Assembly: GCA_035593545.1 (NCBI GenBank)
Contig: DAOSWK010000001.1
Location: forward strand, 1 to 58,906
DNA length: 58,906 nt
Direction: 5' to 3'
From: Oscillospiraceae bacterium
GTDB lineage: Bacteria; Bacillota; Clostridia; Oscillospirales; Ruminococcaceae
Notes under the pieces: model-generated
The model's input: only the letters and a program-made list of their open reading frames with translations
The model's database searches: none
What the model was told of the DNA's origin: nothing
Program-made: the position numbers and the translations under genes
In this document: positions 2,574-44,788 of the stretch, piece after piece
Layout: each line of letters opens with the position of its first letter
Position numbering within the stretch: the first letter of the stretch is position 1

Positions 2574-3257
2574 TCAGGTGCTGAGGAAATAACCGCTTGC
2601 GGCCATGGAGACATAGTCGTCGTTCGCCACGATGATATGGTCGATCAGCTCGACGCCGACCTCCCGGAGCGTCTTGCGAAGCTGCAAGGTCAGATCGATG
2701 TCCTCCTGCGAGGGCACGGCGTACCCCTGCGGATGATTGTGCGCGAGGACCGCGCGGGTCGCCTTTGTGCGGAGGACCGTCTCGATCACCGCGCGCTTCG
2801 TGACGTTCACCCGGCCGATATCCCCTTCCGCGAGCTGATCGCAGGAGAGGATCCGGCCTTTGTTGTCAATTGAGACAAGCAAAAGCCGTTCATTTTTCCG
2901 GCCGACAAACCGCGGCAGCAGATACTTTCCGAGGTCGGAGAGGCCGCCGACGAGACTGTCCGTGGCATTTTTTGCCTCCAGATAGCGGCGCGCGGCCTGC
3001 GGAATCAGGCTGAGCAGAACCGCCGCATTTTCCCCGACGCCTTGGACGGTCATCAGCTCCTCCACCGGAGCATCCAGCACCGCGTCGAGGCTGCCGAAGC
3101 GTTCGATCAGGCGGTGCGCGATCGGGTTGGTATCCGCCCGCGGATTGGAATAGAACAGCAGCAGCTCCAGAACCTGATGCGGCTCAAAGCCGTCCAGCCC
3201 CTCGCTGCGGTATCGGCTACGGAGACGCTGTCTGTGACCTTCGTGTTCGCCCGGCAT
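2574..3257 (-). CDS. radC: RadC-family JAB/MPN domain protein
   Basis: LAHNHPQGYAVPSQEDI JAB motif, helix-hairpin-helix N-terminal half, 227 aa. Confidence 0.9.
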   Translation of the reverse strand: MPGEHEGHRQRLRSRYRSEGLDGFEPHQVLELLLFYSNPRADTNPIAHRLIERFGSLDAVLDAPVEELMTVQGVGENAAVLLSLIPQAARRYLEAKNATDSLVGGLSDLGKYLLPRFVGRKNERLLLVSIDNKGRILSCDQLAEGDIGRVNVTKRAVIETVLRTKATRAVLAHNHPQGYAVPSQEDIDLTLQLRKTLREVGVELIDHIIVANDDYVSMAASGYFLST

Positions 3258-3342: not shown

Positions 3343-4302
3343 ATAAAAAGTTTCACGATCTCCGAAAACGACGCAGGGCAGCGCCTCGATAAGTTTCTGA
3401 CAAAAAGCGTCCCGAAACTCCCAAAGTCCCTGCTCTATAAATATATCCGCATCAAGCGCATCAAACGAAACGGCAAACGCTGCGACATCGCCGACCATCT
3501 GGAGACCGGCGATCTGATCGAGTGCTATGTCTCCGACGAATTTTTTGAGGAGGAGCCGAGCAAACCGGCCTGTTTCTATGCGCCTTCCGCCGTCGACGTG
3601 ATCTATGAGGATCAGAATATTCTGCTCACCAACAAGCCCGCCGGACTGCTCGTCCACGAAGGCGACGAGTGGTCCGCCGACACGCTGATCCTGCGCATCC
3701 AGCACTACCTCTATAAAAAAGGCGAATACGATCCGGAAAACGAAAATTCCTTCGTGCCGGCGCTCTGCAACCGGATCGACCGCAATACCTGCGGCATCGT
3801 GATCGCCGCGAAGAACGCCGCGGCCCTTCGCTACCTGAACGACAGCATTAAAGAACGCACCGTTGAGAAAAAATATCTCTGCGTCGTCAGCGGCACCCCG
3901 GCAAAGCGCTCCGGCACCATCGAGAGTTTCCTCCGGAAGGACGAAAAAACCAACACGGTCGAAGTCTTCAAAACTCCCGTCCCCGGCGGCCGGACCGCAG
4001 TGACGAAATACTATGTGCTCGAATCCAAAAAGGGCATGAGCCTCGTGGAGGCGGAACTTTTGACCGGCCGAACCCACCAGATCCGCGCCCAGTTTGCCTC
4101 CATCGGCTGCCCGCTCGTCGGCGACACAAAATACGGCAAGGCAAAGGACGGCCGCGGCCTCACCTGGCAGGCGCTCTGCTCCTACAAAGTCACGTTCCGC
4201 TTCGGCGGAGAGGGTCCGCTCGCCTACCTCGACGGGAAGACGTTTCAGGTACAGGATGCGTGGTTCCTCAAAGAGCTCGGCTTCGCGATGCCGAAATCCT
4301 GA
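3343..4302 (+). CDS. RluA-family 23S rRNA pseudouridine synthase (RluC/RluD-like) with N-terminal S4 domain; start codon non-canonical or unresolved
   Basis: Catalytic part is ORF 3598..4302 (NRIDRNTCGIVIAAKN, GRTHQIRAQF). The same frame is open back to the stop at 3310 and encodes an S4-like KSFTISENDAGQRLDKFLTK. That stretch has no in-frame ATG, GTG or TTG. ATA 3343 is used as a provisional start. Confidence 0.75.
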   Translation: MKSFTISENDAGQRLDKFLTKSVPKLPKSLLYKYIRIKRIKRNGKRCDIADHLETGDLIECYVSDEFFEEEPSKPACFYAPSAVDVIYEDQNILLTNKPAGLLVHEGDEWSADTLILRIQHYLYKKGEYDPENENSFVPALCNRIDRNTCGIVIAAKNAAALRYLNDSIKERTVEKKYLCVVSGTPAKRSGTIESFLRKDEKTNTVEVFKTPVPGGRTAVTKYYVLESKKGMSLVEAELLTGRTHQIRAQFASIGCPLVGDTKYGKAKDGRGLTWQALCSYKVTFRFGGEGPLAYLDGKTFQVQDAWFLKELGFAMPKS

Positions 4303-4611
4303 CGCGGCGGCCCTTTTTCCCTCGTGTAGCACAGAGAAACGACCGGTTTCCTCGGTAAACATCGGCTTTTTTACGCCGACATCAGAATTTTCTCTGTCTC
4401 CGCACAAACTGCTGGAAAGGGTTCTGGGACGTCATACCGGGATGCCCCTGCGGCATTTACCGATACCAGCTCTTGCTGAAACAGACGGCAACGATTCTTC
4501 GTTCTTGCTTCTGCGAAAATTGTCGAAAAACGTATAGGCCGGGACCGGGCAGAGCCTTTCTCCGGAGATTTCCGGCCCGATATGCCGACATTTCTTTTCA
4601 AAATTCATCTG

Positions 4612-4653
4612 TAAAATAAAATGGCGGTCCTTAAAAAGGGCCGCCGTTTTTTT
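4612..4653. terminator. bidirectional rho-independent terminator
   Basis: GGCGGTCC (4623-4630) / GGGCCGCC (4638-4645) stem with a T-run at 4647-4653 and an A/T-rich run on the other side. It abuts the stop of the minus-strand gene at 4652. Confidence 0.65.
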
Positions 4654-34706: not shown

Positions 34707-35477
34707 CTATGTATTCATCCCCTCGATGCCTTTCAGGAAATCGAGGGTTTTGTAAGTTCGTTCCATTCTGCAAATCGTATACTGCTCCGCAGCCGCCGCA
34801 AGTTCCTTGAGCGCCTCCCCGCCGACTGTAAAGGAAAACAGCTTTTCATCCGGCGCATAGGCGATATGGCGCGCCGCAAAGAAGGCGCTTTTTGAGAGCG
34901 GCAGTCTCCCCGGCTCCGCTTCCGGCATACAGTCGCCGCAGCAGACCTTGCCCTCCTCCGGCGAAAACCAGAAGAACTCCTTTTCGTACTCGCCGCATTC
35001 GCTGCACGCGACGAGATCGGGCCGGAAGCCGGAGATGCTCATCAGGCGCAGTTCGTAGATCGCTTTGAGCTGCTCGGGCGGGCGCTTTTTGTTCTCCAAC
35101 ATATAAAGGGTGTTGAGCGTCAGCCGCAGAATCTCCTCCGAAGGCTCCTCGGCCGGAATACAACTCATGGCAAGTTCACTGAAATAGCTCGCATACGAAA
35201 GGCTCATGAGATCCTCGCGGATGCCAAAGAAAAGTTCTTTCGGTTCGGCGCTGTCGACGGTGCATTTATCCCGGTTCCGAAACAGGACAAACTCGGCATA
35301 ACACAGCGGCGACGCACAGCAGGAAAAGCGATTTTTGAGTTTCGAGGCGCCGCCGGCATAGGCCGTCACAATGCCGGCATCCTTTGTCAGGATGGTCAGC
35401 AGCTTATCGCTCTCTTTATAATCCTGTGTCCTGAGAATCAGGCCCTCCGTCTTGATCTGCACGCTTGATCTCCACAT
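34707..35477 (-). CDS. recO: DNA repair protein RecO
   Basis: KTEGLILRTQDYKESDKLLTILT OB-fold start and a CxxC...CxxC zinc motif (CSECG...CCGDC). GTG 35462 (GGAG 7 nt upstream) is an alternative start. Confidence 0.9.
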   Translation of the reverse strand: MWRSSVQIKTEGLILRTQDYKESDKLLTILTKDAGIVTAYAGGASKLKNRFSCCASPLCYAEFVLFRNRDKCTVDSAEPKELFFGIREDLMSLSYASYFSELAMSCIPAEEPSEEILRLTLNTLYMLENKKRPPEQLKAIYELRLMSISGFRPDLVACSECGEYEKEFFWFSPEEGKVCCGDCMPEAEPGRLPLSKSAFFAARHIAYAPDEKLFSFTVGGEALKELAAAAEQYTICRMERTYKTLDFLKGIEGMNT

Positions 35478-35658
35478 CCTCCGCGAGCGCCGGCTTAATC
35501 ATGGTGGTGTCGCTTTTCCCTACTTCTTCGGCGAGCGCGGGTTTAATTTCCCCATTGTTGTATTTGGCATGAAGGCTCTTGTCCTTCGAGGCGCTGTAAT
35601 GGATATAATCCGAAACCTTTCCGGTTTTAAAGAAATTGTCCCAACTGTTGTTTTCCAT
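35416..35658 (-). CDS. YqzL-like small protein with extended repeat-containing C-terminus
   Basis: Last 80 codons of ORF 35416..35805, from ATG 35658 (GGAGGG upstream). The WDNFFKTGKVSDYIHY start resembles YqzL, which sits between era and recO in Bacillus. The tail overlaps the recO start. Confidence 0.55.
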   Translation of the reverse strand: MENNSWDNFFKTGKVSDYIHYSASKDKSLHAKYNNGEIKPALAEEVGKSDTTMIKPALAEDVEIKRADQDGGPDSQDTGL

Positions 35659-35821
35659 GGATTTTCCCTCCGAATCGCAAATTTGTTCAAAAACAGTGTA
35701 TGTCTTTTTCACTTCGCTATGTGAGGGAAAATCCGTTAATTCAAAAAGTCGGCCCCGGGCGTCTGTGAAAATGCAAAATCCGCGGCCTATGAGCCGGTGC
35801 CTCATTTTATTTTATGACGAC

Positions 35822-35878
35822 GTTTCGTGTGGGCTTGACGAAGCCAAAATCCCGGCCCTCGGCCGGAAAACACGAAAC
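35822..35878. repeat. Y-element A (three-way-junction-forming unit)
   Basis: P1 GTTTCGTGT/ACACGAAAC; P2 GGCTT[GACG]AAGCC; P3 CCGGCC[CTC]GGCCGG. All pairs Watson-Crick. Flanks TTTATGACGACG and CTCGCAAC. Confidence 0.8.
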
Positions 35879-35939
35879 TCGCAACACTTTTATCAGTACT
35901 GCGGTATATCACCCGGCACCCTGTTTCGTTTATGACGAC

Positions 35940-36002
35940 GTTTTGCGTGGTTCCGCCGAAGGCGGAATCCGGGCCGTGCTTTTCGGCCCGGAAATGCAAA
36001 AC
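35940..36002. repeat. Y-element B
   Basis: P1 GTTTTGC/GCAAAAC; P2 TTCCGCC[GAA]GGCGGAA; P3 CCGGGCCG[TGCTTTT]CGGCCCGG. Same flanks as A. Confidence 0.8.
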
Positions 36003-36063
36003 TCGCAACACTTTTATCAGTACTGCGGTATATCACCCGGCACCCTGTTTCGTTTATGACGAC

Positions 36064-36126
36064 GTTTTGCGTGGTTCCGCCGAAGGCGGAATCCGGGCCG
36101 TGCTTTTCGGCCCGGAAATGCAAAAC
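36064..36126. repeat. Y-element C (identical to B)
   Basis: Exact copy of 35940-36002, followed by CTCGCAGC and the era terminator hairpin. Confidence 0.8.
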
Positions 36127-36131
36127 TCGCA

Positions 36132-36161
36132 GCATATGATCCGGCACTCCGGAACATATGC
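36132..36161 (-). terminator. hairpin directly after the era stop (possible terminator; weak U-tract)
   Basis: GCATATG...TCCGG/CCGGA...CATATGC long hairpin, overlapping the TAG by 1 nt. Followed on the minus strand by TGCGAGTTTTGCATTT. Confidence 0.4.
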
Positions 36162-37060
36162 TATTTCTCTGTGAATCCGAAATTGCGCAGAAGGCCCTCG
36201 CGGTTGCGCCAGTCCTCTTTCACCTTCACCCAAAGCTGAAGGTTGACCTTGCAGGCGAGGAAGCGTTCCAGCTCCTCACGGGCCTCGATACCGATTTTTT
36301 TGAGCATGGCGCCTTTCTTGCCAATAATGATGCCTTTGTGGCTATCCTTTTCGCAGTAAATCGTGGCCTCAATGTCGATAAGCTCCTTGTCCTCCCGCTC
36401 TTTCATGCTCTCGATGCCGACCGCGATGCCGTGCGGCACCTCGTCGGAGAGATCGGTCAGCAGCTTTTCGCGGATCAACTCCGCCGCGACGGCCCTTTCC
36501 GGCATGTCGGTGAGGATGTCGTCCTCAAAAAAATGCGGGCCGGGCTGAGCATATTTGCCGATTTCCTCAAGCAAAATGTCGAGGCCGTCGCCCGTCAGCG
36601 CGGAGATCGGAACCACCTGATCGAAATCAAATTCTTTGGAGAAAGCGGCGATCTTCGCGAGCATGGCCTCTTTATTTTGCAGGAGATCGATCTTGTTGAT
36701 GCAGAGAATCGCCGGCAGGCCCTGATCCCTGAAACGCTGCATCAGGTCAAGTTCCGCTTTAGCGATTTCCCCCAGCGGCTCCGTGACGAGCACCGCAAGA
36801 TCCACATCCGCCACGGATTCGCCGACCTGTTTCACCATGTACTCGGCGAGCTTGCTGCGCGGCTGGTGCAGGCCGGGCGTATCCAGAAAGACAAGTTGCA
36901 GCGGGCCTTTGGTGAGAACGCCGGTGATCCGCGTACGGGTCGTCTGGGGCTTCGCCGAAACGGCAGCGACCTTTTCGCCGAGAAACGCATTCAGTAAAGA
37001 GCTTTTTCCGACATTCGGCCGGCCGACGATGGCGACAAACGCGCCTTTGGTTTCTTCCAT
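36161..37060 (-). CDS. era: GTPase Era
   Basis: ORF 36161..37105 trimmed to ATG 37060 (MEETKGAFVAIVGRPNVGKSSL). G1-G4 motifs and a C-terminal KH domain. Confidence 0.95.
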   Translation of the reverse strand: MEETKGAFVAIVGRPNVGKSSLLNAFLGEKVAAVSAKPQTTRTRITGVLTKGPLQLVFLDTPGLHQPRSKLAEYMVKQVGESVADVDLAVLVTEPLGEIAKAELDLMQRFRDQGLPAILCINKIDLLQNKEAMLAKIAAFSKEFDFDQVVPISALTGDGLDILLEEIGKYAQPGPHFFEDDILTDMPERAVAAELIREKLLTDLSDEVPHGIAVGIESMKEREDKELIDIEATIYCEKDSHKGIIIGKKGAMLKKIGIEAREELERFLACKVNLQLWVKVKEDWRNREGLLRNFGFTEK

Positions 37061-40921: not shown

Positions 40922-41560
40922 ATGATGTCCGTATCCGAACCGATTCTGCTTGAAACATCCGTCCGCCATGTTCACCTTTCCAAGGAGCATTTGAAAGTGC
41001 TGTTCGGCAACTCCGAAGATGTGCTCCACAGCAAACGTGCCCTCTCCCAGCCGGGACAGTTCGCTTGTTATGAGAAAGTCGACGTCGTCGGGCCGAAGCG
41101 CACGCTCTCCGGCCTCACCATCGTCGGTCCGGCCCGCAGCCAGACCCAAGTGGAGCTCTCCATCTCCGATGCCCGCGCCGTCGGCCTCGATCCGCCGGTA
41201 CGCCTCTCCGGAGATCTCGAAGGCAGCGCCCCCTGTAAGATCATCGGACCCTGCGGCGAGATCGAGCTCAAAGAAGGCGTCATCATCATGCAACGGCATA
41301 TCCATATGACGCCGGCGGATGCGGAACATTTTGGCCGCAAAAACAACGAGCTGGTCTCCATCCGCGTGGAGAGCCCGACCCGTTCCCTGACCTTTGACGA
41401 CGTCATCATCCGTGTCAGCACGAGCGCAGGGCTCGCCATCCATATCGATACCGACGAGTCCAACGCGGCAGGAGGCACCGCCACCACCGCCGTGATCGTG
41501 GACGCTCGCCGGGAGGAAGAGGATGCCGCTCCGGAATACGATTTCAGTTTACAGGAATAA
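40922..41560 (+). CDS. pduL: PduL-type phosphate acyltransferase (phosphate propanoyltransferase)
   Basis: Duplicated PduL signature: SVRHVHLS...GQFA and QRHIHMTP...IHIDTDESNAAG. Confidence 0.85.
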   Translation: MMSVSEPILLETSVRHVHLSKEHLKVLFGNSEDVLHSKRALSQPGQFACYEKVDVVGPKRTLSGLTIVGPARSQTQVELSISDARAVGLDPPVRLSGDLEGSAPCKIIGPCGEIELKEGVIIMQRHIHMTPADAEHFGRKNNELVSIRVESPTRSLTFDDVIIRVSTSAGLAIHIDTDESNAAGGTATTAVIVDARREEEDAAPEYDFSLQE

Positions 41561-41605
41561 TCCGCTCACCGATACATAGCTTCTCAGGGGCCACATCCGG
41601 CTGCT

Positions 41606-41650
41606 GCGACGAGTTTTCGTGTGCGCGAAGCAACACCGACGGCCATTTTG
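41606..41650. repeat. Y-element D (5' fragment only)
   Basis: GCGACGAG-TTTTC, P2 GTGTGC[GCGAA]GCA(A)CAC, and the P3 5' arm CGACGGCC. The partner arms are missing and are replaced by element E. Confidence 0.7.
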
Positions 41651-41658
41651 TCCGGGAT

Positions 41659-41720
41659 CGAATATTCCGGTTCCGTTTACGGAATGCCGGTCCGGCTCTT
41701 GGACCGGCAGGGAATATTCG
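41659..41720. repeat. Y-element E
   Basis: P1 CGAATATTCC/GGAATATTCG; P2 TTCCG[TTTA]CGGAA; P3 GCCGGTCC[GGCTCTT]GGACCGGC. Followed by CAGCCCTTTTAGGGCGGT. Confidence 0.8.
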
Positions 41721-41756
41721 CAGCCCTTTTAGGGCGGTTTTAGGCTAATCGTACGA

Positions 41757-41815
41757 CGAGTTTTCGTGTGCGCGAAGCACACCGACGGCCTGCTTTTGGC
41801 CGTCGAGAAAACTCG
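41757..41815. repeat. Y-element F
   Basis: P1 CGAGTTTTC/GAAAACTCG; P2 GTGTGC[GCGAA]GCACAC; P3 CGACGGCC[TGCTTTT]GGCCGTCG. Junctions are 0-1 nt. Followed by CAGCCCTTTTAGGGCGGT. Confidence 0.8.
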
Positions 41816-41856
41816 CAGCCCTTTTAGGGCGGTATAAAAAAGAAAGGAACTAAAAA

Positions 41857-42429
41857 ATGAGTGAATTGGACACGCTGCGCCGGGAATGCCTCGACTGCCG
41901 GAAGTGCGGCCTGTGCGAAACCAGGAACAACGTGGTCTTCGGTACGGGGAATCCGAATGCAAGGGTGATGTTTATCGGCGAAGGCCCCGGCGAACAGGAG
42001 GACCTGACCGGCCAGCCTTTCGTCGGGCGTGGCGGTATACTTCTGGACAAGATGCTGGCGGCGGTGGATCTCTCGCGGGATAAAAATATTTACATAGCAA
42101 ATATGGTCAAATGCCGCCCTCCGAAAAACCGTGATCCGGAGGAGGAAGAGGTTCAGGCCTGCCGCGCGTGGCTGCGGGAACAGATCCGTCTGATCGACCC
42201 GAAATTGATCGTCTGCCTCGGCAGGATCGCGGCGTTTCGTTTCATTGGGCCGGATTTTCGCGTCACAAAGGAACATGGGCAGTGGAAAGAGGTCGACGGC
42301 CGGCTCGTGATGGGTACTTTCCGCCCTGCCGCCCTGCTGCGCAACCCGCATCAGAAACCGGAAGGCATGGAGGATTTTTTCGCTCTCGAAGAAAAAATCC
42401 GGGAGGTCTGTCCGGAAACCTACGAATGA
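41857..42429 (+). CDS. uracil-DNA glycosylase, family 4
   Basis: CRKCGLCETRNNVVFGTGNPNARVMFIGEGPG and NMVKCRPPKNRDP motifs. Confidence 0.9.
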   Translation: MSELDTLRRECLDCRKCGLCETRNNVVFGTGNPNARVMFIGEGPGEQEDLTGQPFVGRGGILLDKMLAAVDLSRDKNIYIANMVKCRPPKNRDPEEEEVQACRAWLREQIRLIDPKLIVCLGRIAAFRFIGPDFRVTKEHGQWKEVDGRLVMGTFRPAALLRNPHQKPEGMEDFFALEEKIREVCPETYE

Positions 42430-44714: not shown

Positions 44715-44788
44715 TGGAGCGGATAACGGGAATCGAACCCGCCTATCCGGCTTGGGAAGCCGGTGTTCTACCAATGAACTATATCCGC
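44715..44788 (-). tRNA. tRNA-Gly (anticodon CCC), CCA encoded
   Basis: Minus strand GCGGATATAGTTCATTGGTAGAACACCGGCTTCCCAAGCCGGATAGGCGGGTTCGATTCCCGTTATCCGCTCCA. It has a 7-bp acceptor stem, anticodon loop UUCCCAA, and T-loop GGTTCGATTCC. Confidence 0.95.

Follow-up and report, generated by a model that had tools for sequence, protein, structure and literature searches.

Tandem palindromic repeats predicted to fold as three-way junctions at two intergenic loci of an uncultured Oscillospiraceae bacterium

Introduction

Repetitive extragenic palindromes (REPs), bacterial interspersed mosaic elements (BIMEs) and the SMAG repeats are small GC-rich palindromes of extragenic DNA with an unpaired tag at the foot (PMC2613905, PMC3733652, PMC2817692). 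In Stenotrophomonas, the SMAG arrays consist of a REP that is reiterated in tandem with 26–31 bp of its flank; the unit numbers define strains, and related repeats replace units (PMC2613905). The present work concerns a repeat of similar habit, here called the Y element, which was found in a 58,906-nucleotide stretch (the window) of an uncultured Oscillospiraceae bacterium of anaerobic digester origin (assembly GCA_035593545.1, contig DAOSWK010000001.1, positions 1 to 58,906 of the forward strand). Like the REP and SMAG repeats it is a small, GC-rich, tagged palindrome that lies between co-directional housekeeping genes and can be folded on either strand. As at SMAG loci I–XII, palindrome and flank are amplified head to tail, unit number differs from strain to strain, and some units have given way to related repeats. 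SMAG arrays are the closest described behaviour to that of the Y arrays.

Other known systems are similar in part. Miniature inverted-repeat transposable elements (MITEs) and the ERIC, BOX, RUP, Correia and bcr1 repeats share with the Y element terminal inverted repeats, a variable interior, predicted stable RNA and DNA folds, an intergenic position and presence or absence by strain (PMC3184786). Minisatellites of the mycobacterial interspersed repetitive unit (MIRU) or variable number tandem repeat (VNTR) kind likewise have 50–125-bp units in operon spacers, with copy numbers that differ between close strains. In the T-shaped hairpins of parvovirus and adeno-associated virus (AAV) inverted terminal repeats (ITRs), single-stranded DNA that is recognised by HUH proteins, two small palindromes are nested in a longer one. 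To our knowledge, small structured intergenic repeat families are little described in the phylum studied here. The class of small structured intergenic repeats is familiar; the Y structure and its evolution are apparently undescribed, and within this class the element is distinguished by a three-way-junction unit and new tags.

Our best explanation is that the Y element is a young, lineage-restricted, REP-like palindromic repeat, which has been amplified in tandem together with its flank, whose arms are homogenised at the DNA level, and which is a passive structure when transcribed. We give this reading a probability of about 0.5.

Results

Two loci with one repeat family

The spacer between pduL and the uracil-DNA glycosylase gene udg (locus 2) is 297 nt long in the window and houses three copies of the repeat, D, E and F. 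In complete copies a base helix (P1) encloses two inner hairpins (P2 and P3). The features of this locus are as follows:

41607–41644, plus strand: D, a truncated unit with the 5' tag CGACG, the 5' arm of P1, P2 with an extra A and the 5' arm of P3, without the 3' arms
41659–41720, plus strand: E, a complete Y element with P1 of 10 bp, P2 of 5 bp and P3 of 9 bp
41718–41738, plus strand: first copy of the direct repeat made up of the 3' tag TCGCAGC, the tail hairpin GCCC[TTTTA]GGGC and GGT
41753–41758, plus strand: 5' tag of F, ACGACG, invariant or nearly so in 15 distinct units and also present in the array of a distant relative (L079, see below)
41757–41815, plus strand: F, a complete Y element with P1 of 9 bp, P2 of 6 bp, P3 of 8 bp and junctions of 0–1 nt
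41812–41835, plus strand: second copy of the 3' tag and tail, CTCGCAGC with the hairpin GCCC[TTTTA]GGGC and GGTAT
40922–41560: pduL (PF06130), upstream of the spacer
41857–42429: udg (PF03167), downstream of the spacer

The original prediction, made by a model from the letters of the window, had described D, E, F, the tails and both genes at these places, and as sequence features all of them were confirmed. In F, P1 is formed by CGAGTTTTC and GAAAACTCG (41757–65/41807–15), P2 reads GTGTGC[GCGAA]GCACAC and P3 reads CGACGGCC[TGCTTTT]GGCCGTCG. The corresponding helices of E are CGAATATTCC/GGAATATTCG (41659–68/41711–20), TTCCG[TTTA]CGGAA and (T)GCCGGTCC[GGCTCTT]GGACCGGC(A), and across the two palindromes the junctions measure 0–2 nt. 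The stretch 41607–41632 is an exact copy of 41754–41779, and 41633–41644 is an exact copy of 41779–41790; since these direct repeats match over the first 37 nt with the exception of one extra A, D is the 5' half of an F unit. CAGCCCTTTTAGGGCGGT is present twice in the spacer, and the second tail copy ends about 7 nt upstream of the ribosome-binding site of udg.

Locus 1 is the spacer between era and yqzL/recO, all of which are encoded on the minus strand. Here the following was found:

35814–36133, plus strand: array of three units, A (35814–85), B (35932–36009) and C (36056–36133), with a period of 118–124 nt
36131–36162, minus strand: 14-bp hairpin which begins at the era stop codon and is followed by GCGAGTTTTGC, the first P1 arm of unit C

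The 5' tag of this locus reads ATGACGACG, and the plan TCGCARC-MCTTTTA-...-GCGGTAT is common to locus 1 and the tail of locus 2. In sister strains, the spacers between units contain copied parts of the era-stop hairpin.

The subfamilies could not be aligned structurally with MAFFT; a model was therefore made from one subfamily and the remaining units were aligned to it. The covariance model R1, built from B-type (locus-1) units only, recovered E (37.4 bits, E-value 1.5e-8) and F (36 bits), both at an E-value of about 1e-8, and under the later model R2 the scores were 58.6 bits for E and 63.4 bits for F (E-value 4e-14). Pairwise alignment gave z values of 3–10 between units, indicating sequence homology of all of them. 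These two results show that the two loci hold one repeat family, as had been proposed. E is slightly nearer to B and C (z 5.7–6.1) than to F (z 4.5), and its P2 and the start of its P3 are closer to the B type of locus 1 than to F.

Independent assemblies of the same species contain both loci: locus 2 was identical (100%) in all four, and locus 1 was found in three of three, with one mismatch in two of them. The Y loci are thus not an assembly artefact.

Structure of the repeat unit

Each unit opens with an asymmetric, conserved 5' tag, (A)TGACGACG, and continues into P1, whose base CGA(C)GTTT.../...AAACTCG is conserved. The P1 arms constitute an 11-bp terminal inverted repeat, CGA(C)GTTTTGC / GCAAAACTCG, which is conserved in A, B, C, F and the L079 array. 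P2 has the apex C-GAA-G in most units, the P3 loop TGCTTTT is conserved, and the unit closes with CTCGCRGC as its 3' tag, then a small hairpin (TTTTA-type loop) and GCGGTAT. The interior is variable and self-complementary, usually with two hairpins (hence Y), otherwise with one hairpin, as in one unit of strain L185, or with a mere triloop. The arm sequences of P1, P2 and P3 differ among units and yet remain complementary, and the tail hairpin is likewise preserved through a double change (GCCTC..GAGGC) in strains L182 and L185. The C-GAA-G apex is the d(cGNAg) motif, which is characteristic of unusually stable mini-hairpins of DNA.

On each of the two strands, minimum-free-energy folding yields the Y structure (RNA z −3.9 to −6.3), in agreement with the earlier claim that it folds equally well on either. 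For folding as DNA, F plus tail had z values of −6.0 and −6.4, and the D/E stretch (plus strand only) one of −4.9. The predicted stability per unit as a three-way junction was −33 to −41 kcal/mol. A strict descriptor of an all-Watson–Crick three-way junction had three matches in the window (A, E and F), against six unrelated weak matches in 1.3 Mb of relatives' DNA and one in 1.3 Mb of shuffled DNA.

Among 15 distinct units, 95.3% of alignment cells form standard pairs and 18 of the 28 pairs have changes on both sides, counts that lean toward the structure and are somewhat inflated, as the alignment was fitted to it. None of 500 shuffles equalled the observed pairing, and slid partners paired in only 23–51% of cells. 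In view of the slid controls and the independent RNAfold results, the fold is secure despite the fitted alignment. The original prediction had counted only Watson–Crick pairs and no G-T. This holds only when P1 in units B and C is limited to 7 bp; in the minimum-free-energy fold it extends through one G·T pair (GCGT/ATGC), where a sister strain has A-T.

Gain, loss and decay of units among strains

Relatedness between strains is expressed here as PhoH identity, and the relatives' DNA consists of the PhoH neighbourhoods (1.3 Mb). For the organism itself about 70 kb were covered. The spacers compared as follows:

Window: pduL–udg 297 nt with D, E and F (2.5 units); era–yqzL with 3 units
Strains L182–L184, L186 and L187 (98% PhoH): pduL–udg 174 nt with one F-like unit and a duplicated tail hairpin; era–yqzL with 3 units in L183 and 5 in L184, an assembly gap within the array of L182, and L186 and L187 ending inside the array
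Strain L185 (98% PhoH): pduL–udg 507 nt with three truncated and two complete F-like units, period about 89 nt; era–yqzL with 5 units
Clade of L188, L189 and L211 (93% PhoH): pduL–udg 162, 113 and 114 nt, respectively, without Y; era–yqzL of L211 294 nt, without Y
Relatives L204–L210 (80% PhoH): pduL absent; era–yqzL 77–99 nt, without Y

Model R2 gave no match at the corresponding spacers of the 93% clade (locus 2 in all three members, locus 1 in L211) or of the 80% relatives. In L189 an ordinary terminator hairpin precedes the udg ribosome-binding site.

An insertion polymorphism at pduL–udg, suggested beforehand as a check, was therefore present. Among strains with 98–100% PhoH identity, head-to-tail units number 1, 2.5 or 5 at pduL–udg and 3 or 5 at era–yqzL. 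The variation is mostly tandem gain and loss of units, which shows that the arrays behave as a VNTR and not by transposition. Since unit counts vary among close strains and Y is absent from the 93% and 80% relatives, the arrays are recent, unstable in unit number and, with the exception of the L079 array and a weak Y in L040, confined to one species-level clade.

Recombined and decayed units were also observed. The locus-1 arrays of sister strains include chimeric units (an A-type 5' arm with a B-type 3' arm) and decayed ones. The earlier view of D as a recombined copy fits these data, as L185 carries three truncated or chimeric units similar to it. Array periods were 89, 104, 118 and 124 nt.

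In the 93% clade, short remnants resemble unit 5' ends (GACGACGATAAGTTTTTC in L188 and GACAGCGTTTTGCATGG in L211). The pduL–udg spacer of L188 (L188:2123-2286) contains GACGACGATAAGTTTTTC and AATCCGCGGCC, which resemble the 5' tag with the P1 arm and the motif to the left of unit A (window 35774–35788). Judging from the sequence, these motifs may be a decayed old copy.

Assemblies break or carry runs of N inside the era–yqzL array (L182:12617-12745, the locus ends of L186 and L187, and L195:18888-18986). A further 155-nt difference in length between strains, near window position 4300–4650, was rejected as an indel because it proved to be a scaffold gap of Ns.

Searches for further copies

No third locus was found in the window, in about 8.5 kb past its right end (L191) or in the strains' versions of its left half. 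In 1.36 Mb from 80 related species, no R2 match exceeded 25 bits; beyond two weak relatives (L079 and L040) there was nothing.

The first of these, at the end of contig JAZNWS010000022.1 (L079:1-205, minus strand), is an array of at least 3.5 tandem 56-nt units (TATGACGACGTTTGCGCAGCAAACTCGCGGCAGTGAGCGCACGAAGTAAGCGAACG), which lies directly after a terminator hairpin and reaches the contig end. Each unit reads TATGACGACG-TTTGC[GCA]GCAAA-CTCGCGGC plus 25 nt, so that only the tags and a 6-bp stem remain. The host is a Eubacteriales metagenome-assembled genome (MAG) with 45% GC and 59% PhoH identity. The second lies in a 580-nt spacer between the pyruvate kinase gene and queT, with features at L040:2886-2910 and 3034-3094. 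It includes the hairpin TTTTTGCGCC[GTGCTTTTT]GGCGCAAAAA, whose loop matches the P3 loop of the family, and a weak Y that ends in AAACTCGCAGC with the 3' tag (R2 22.9 bits, E-value 0.012).

The wider searches gave little. In viral contigs, the tail pattern and the Y-flank pattern had chance matches without a Y fold, and two tag-to-tag patterns had none. In metagenomes, the tail pattern TCGCARCMCTTTTAN{2,8}GCGGT matched 91 stretches; the 25 best-folding of these had no upstream Y and all were taken as chance. This pattern was in hindsight too lineage-specific, and the window's own contigs were not recovered with it. BLAST found no match in plasmids (both loci) or phages (locus 2 only).

Open reading frames (ORFs) of 77–142 aa run across the arrays (window 35932–36174, plus strand; 35893–36147 and 41729–41962, minus strand; L184:12614-13042), and the last of these has been called as a protein by gene callers. 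A HMMER search with the array pseudo-ORF against 1.84e9 representatives returned two spurious ORFs of the same locus type (P0178 and P0181) and two chance eukaryote-like repeat proteins, and a protein search with the L079 pseudo-ORF gave no match. The array ORFs are the repeat translated in shifting frames and not genes.

With Rfam, the only match at gathering threshold over the window was a tRNA (44718–44788). Permissive scans of both loci (E≤10) returned noise at E-values of 0.4 or worse, with scores far under gathering, and nothing for L040 or L079. Neither the called genes of the window nor the few flanking ORFs of L079 and L040 (Pfam scan) included a transposase, and no integrase was seen among the called genes of the window.

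Evidence for the DNA level

Relative to the transcription of the flanking genes, the two loci are oppositely oriented. On the tagged strand, G·T and T·G mispairs together number 12, compared with 9 for A·C and C·A. This ratio near 1:1 points to unselected transitions and not to the excess of G·U expected for a functional RNA, which argues against a strand-specific RNA. Sister strains also contain half-compensated pairs in both strand senses: in the B-type P2, C-G goes to T·G (L182) and T-A (L185), and in the F-type P2, T-A goes to C·A (L182) and C-G (L185).

A scan of both loci found no match to a sigma-70-like promoter. On the plus strand of locus 2, neither Y nor the tail hairpin is followed by a T-run, i.e. 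there is no intrinsic terminator after Y on the tagged strand. Terminator-like matches were few, weak and mostly on the opposite strand, e.g. a hairpin followed by GTTTTG on the minus strand of locus 1. The opposite orientations, the mispair ratio, the two-way intermediates, the absence of promoter matches and the C-GAA-G apex together support a DNA-level reading. At locus 1, two G·T pairs give the tail hairpin better pairing on the minus (era-sense) strand. In each of the three informative loci (the two of the window and L079) the tags lie on the C-rich strand, although with n=3 this is not significant.

Discussion

Comparison with described repeats

The Y unit is a 60–75-nt three-way junction, compared with the 20–40-bp single hairpin of REPs. 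It carries the tags ATGACGACG and CTCGCRGC in place of GTAG or 5'-CGTC, occurs at two loci in about 70 kb whereas REPs exceed 100 copies per genome, and resides in a Clostridia MAG with no RAYT (REP-associated tyrosine transposase) gene seen in those 70 kb. By the definition in PMC3733652 (an unpaired GTAG or CGTC at the 5' foot of a 20–40-bp hairpin), it falls outside the tagged REPs: (A)TGACGACG serves as 5' tag and CTCGCRGC as 3' tag, and CGTC is confined to the 3' end of the complementary strand. The abstract and CGTC section of PMC3733652, and PMC2613905, describe no tagged REPs from Clostridia.

As for MITE-type repeats, terminal inverted repeats are present in Y. In contrast to those repeats, it has no target-site duplication (the flanks ATGA.. 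and ..CARC are not duplicates), its copies stand in two direct tandem arrays and are not dispersed, and we know of no parent insertion sequence whose ends match. The spacers of element-free relatives were too diverged to define an empty site. Unlike MIRU/VNTR minisatellites, Y units are strongly palindromic with covarying arms, and are not in frame or translationally coupled with the flanking genes. The resemblance to AAV ITRs is an analogy only: both have nested palindromes, all-Watson–Crick pairing, a single-stranded motif beside the stem and a strand-symmetric fold, but Y has roughly half the length, sits in tandem on a chromosome and not at a terminus, and has no Rep/HUH gene nearby.

Several other classes were considered and rejected. 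An integron attC site is an imperfect palindrome with R'' (RYYYAAC) at its 5' end and R' (GTTRRRY) at its 3' end, found beside cassettes and intI; Y has the reverse order (GTTTT in the 5' arm, AAAAC in the 3' one) and lies among housekeeping genes without an integrase. An antitoxin array of a type III toxin–antitoxin system does not fit the genes downstream (udg at locus 2, an 80-aa ORF and recO at locus 1), which have no toxin domain. CRISPR arrays are inconsistent with the repetition of whole units including inter-unit DNA, without unique spacers. Since the plus strand of locus 2 has no T-run behind Y or its tail hairpin, an intrinsic terminator is rejected; a promoter array is rejected by the lack of a sigma-70 match, and a coding minigene by array periods that are not multiples of 3. 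No Rfam family was matched, in keeping with the original prediction that the element is not a gene-specific riboswitch; a ribozyme was rejected on the same result.

Proposed origin of the arrays

On our reading of Y as a young REP-like repeat amplified in tandem, the unit comprises the 5' tag, the P1 base helix as terminal inverted repeat, a variable self-complementary interior and the 3' tag with its small hairpin. It is reiterated head to tail together with some flank, and slippage or unequal crossing-over adds, removes and shuffles whole units; this part of the scheme is shown. The perfect Watson–Crick arms would be kept by intrastrand template switching, or by gene conversion between the arms of the quasi-palindrome, rather than being maintained by selection on one RNA strand. 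Homogenisation of inverted-repeat arms by template switching has precedents (PMC7202029, PMC8604942). Transcribed in either orientation, the unit should form a very stable three-way junction and be a passive structure at both loci, between pduL and udg and between era and yqzL/recO. It would probably hinder exoribonucleases passively or insulate pduL from udg, at the place where relatives have an ordinary terminator hairpin. On this reading the element is neither a ligand sensor nor a trans-acting RNA.

Some observations weigh against this proposal. E, at locus 2, is like the locus-1 type, which implies transfer between loci 6 kb apart. The L079 array shares the tags while closer relatives are without the family, and such a patchy distribution is explained more easily by horizontal movement than by purely local duplication. 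Neutral slippage does not account for the conserved asymmetric single-stranded tags and TGCTTTT loop, which resemble recognition sequences. Moreover, the pair counts are inflated by the fitted alignment, and the RNA-barrier effect is purely inferred.

The alternative that survives best, although we consider it rather unlikely, is a non-autonomous MITE- or REP-like mobile element: the folded single-stranded Y and its tags would be the target of a trans-encoded Y1/HUH nuclease of RAYT type, or of some other transposase, which would copy the element to new sites, and the tandem arrays would arise by repeated insertion beside an existing copy. Conserved asymmetric tags at the hairpin foot, an 11-bp terminal inverted repeat and a variable interior are what such an element would have, as are the tags around an 'empty' interior in L079 and the one-hairpin unit in L185. 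The patchy phyletic distribution, with L079 distant and low in GC, and the B-like unit E inside an F-type array point the same way. If the C-rich tagged strand is taken at face value (n=3, not significant), the element would have a fixed strand on the lagging-strand template, as IS200/IS605 elements and REPs do. However, a target-site duplication and a clean empty site are both lacking, neither the called window genes nor the scanned flanking ORFs of L079 and L040 include a transposase or integrase, and only two loci, 6 kb apart, occur in about 70 kb. No strong match was obtained in the 1.36 Mb from 80 related species, the searches of metagenomes, viruses, phages and plasmids were empty, and the pseudo-ORF search at the protein level gave the same locus only. 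The tags are also neither GTAG nor 5'-CGTC, the forms given in PMC3733652. The earlier description as a mobile or REP-like repeat is upheld for the REP-like tandem palindrome and not for mobility, given the missing target-site duplication, the lack of a transposase in the window and the absence of a third locus in about 70 kb. The RNA stabiliser that was suggested beside it may still apply.

A functional structured RNA, i.e. a three-way-junction cis element (processing site, stabiliser or protein-binding site) or a small RNA (sRNA) duplicated like multicopy sRNAs, is improbable. It would account for the strong covariation and very stable folds, for the conserved C-GAA-G and TGCTTTT loops, together with the GTGCTTTTT loop of the L040 hairpin, for the copy next to udg ending about 7 nt before the ribosome-binding site, and for the better pairing of the locus-1 tail hairpin on the era-sense strand by two G·T pairs. 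Against it, the two loci are turned in opposite directions with respect to their neighbouring genes, G·U is not in excess of A·C, no sigma-70-like promoter was found, and no intrinsic terminator follows Y on the tagged strand. Many units are chimeric or decayed, copy number is free to vary in near-identical strains, and relatives have the same genes without the element, which has no Rfam match even at E≤10.

More speculatively, an undescribed process acting on single-stranded DNA in Clostridia could use Y as its substrate, an idea to which we attach little weight. The folded Y with its unpaired tags (5'-GYTGCGAG...CGTCGTCAT-3', on the lagging-strand template) would serve a domesticated HUH or other nuclease as an AAV-ITR-like three-way junction for recognition and copying, and the REP/RAYT-like system could move between distant Oscillospirales. 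We know of no described REP/RAYT-like system with a three-way-junction substrate. The import of the present findings would be far greater if the tags were recognition sites of a dedicated enzyme.

A double-stranded DNA binding-site array for a centromere-like or nucleoid-associated protein, with the inverted repeats as dyad operators, is very improbable: tandem direct units with internal dyads do resemble partition sites, and the tags are conserved across species, but arms that differ and still stay complementary indicate a folded structure or arm-to-arm copying and not a fixed operator, and the arrays sit in chromosomal housekeeping operons where copy number falls to one without apparent harm.

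If the tandem REP-like repeat is the correct explanation, these loci would provide a clean young case of the birth, amplification and upkeep of a palindromic repeat in a Gram-positive anaerobe, with sister-strain units that catch compensatory changes half-way in both strand senses. Array length could then serve as a strain-typing marker for this one uncultured Oscillospiraceae species of digesters. The explanation would also account for the assembly breaks and gaps at these spacers, and would warn annotators that ORFs of 80–140 aa over such arrays are spurious.

Genomic context

Between the locus-1 array and recO lies one further feature:

35416–35658, minus strand: small ORF of 80 aa with a strong ribosome-binding site (GGAGGG), overlapping the recO start, without a Pfam match

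From its position and synteny and its N-terminal sequence, we take this ORF to be YqzL-like. In some assemblies gene callers have lengthened it to 98–129 aa, into unit A, and this extension is spurious.

The tRNA gene at 44718–44788, the sole Rfam match of the window (70 bits), is on the minus strand. Most of the housekeeping genes are also carried by that strand (polC, rpsB-tsf-pyrH-frr, dxr, era, recO and mutS2), and the GC skew of the plus strand is negative across the whole window, 1–58906 (−0.035 to −0.068). Taken together, the negative skew and the minus-strand housekeeping genes indicate that the window belongs in its entirety to a single replichore, whose leading strand is the minus strand.

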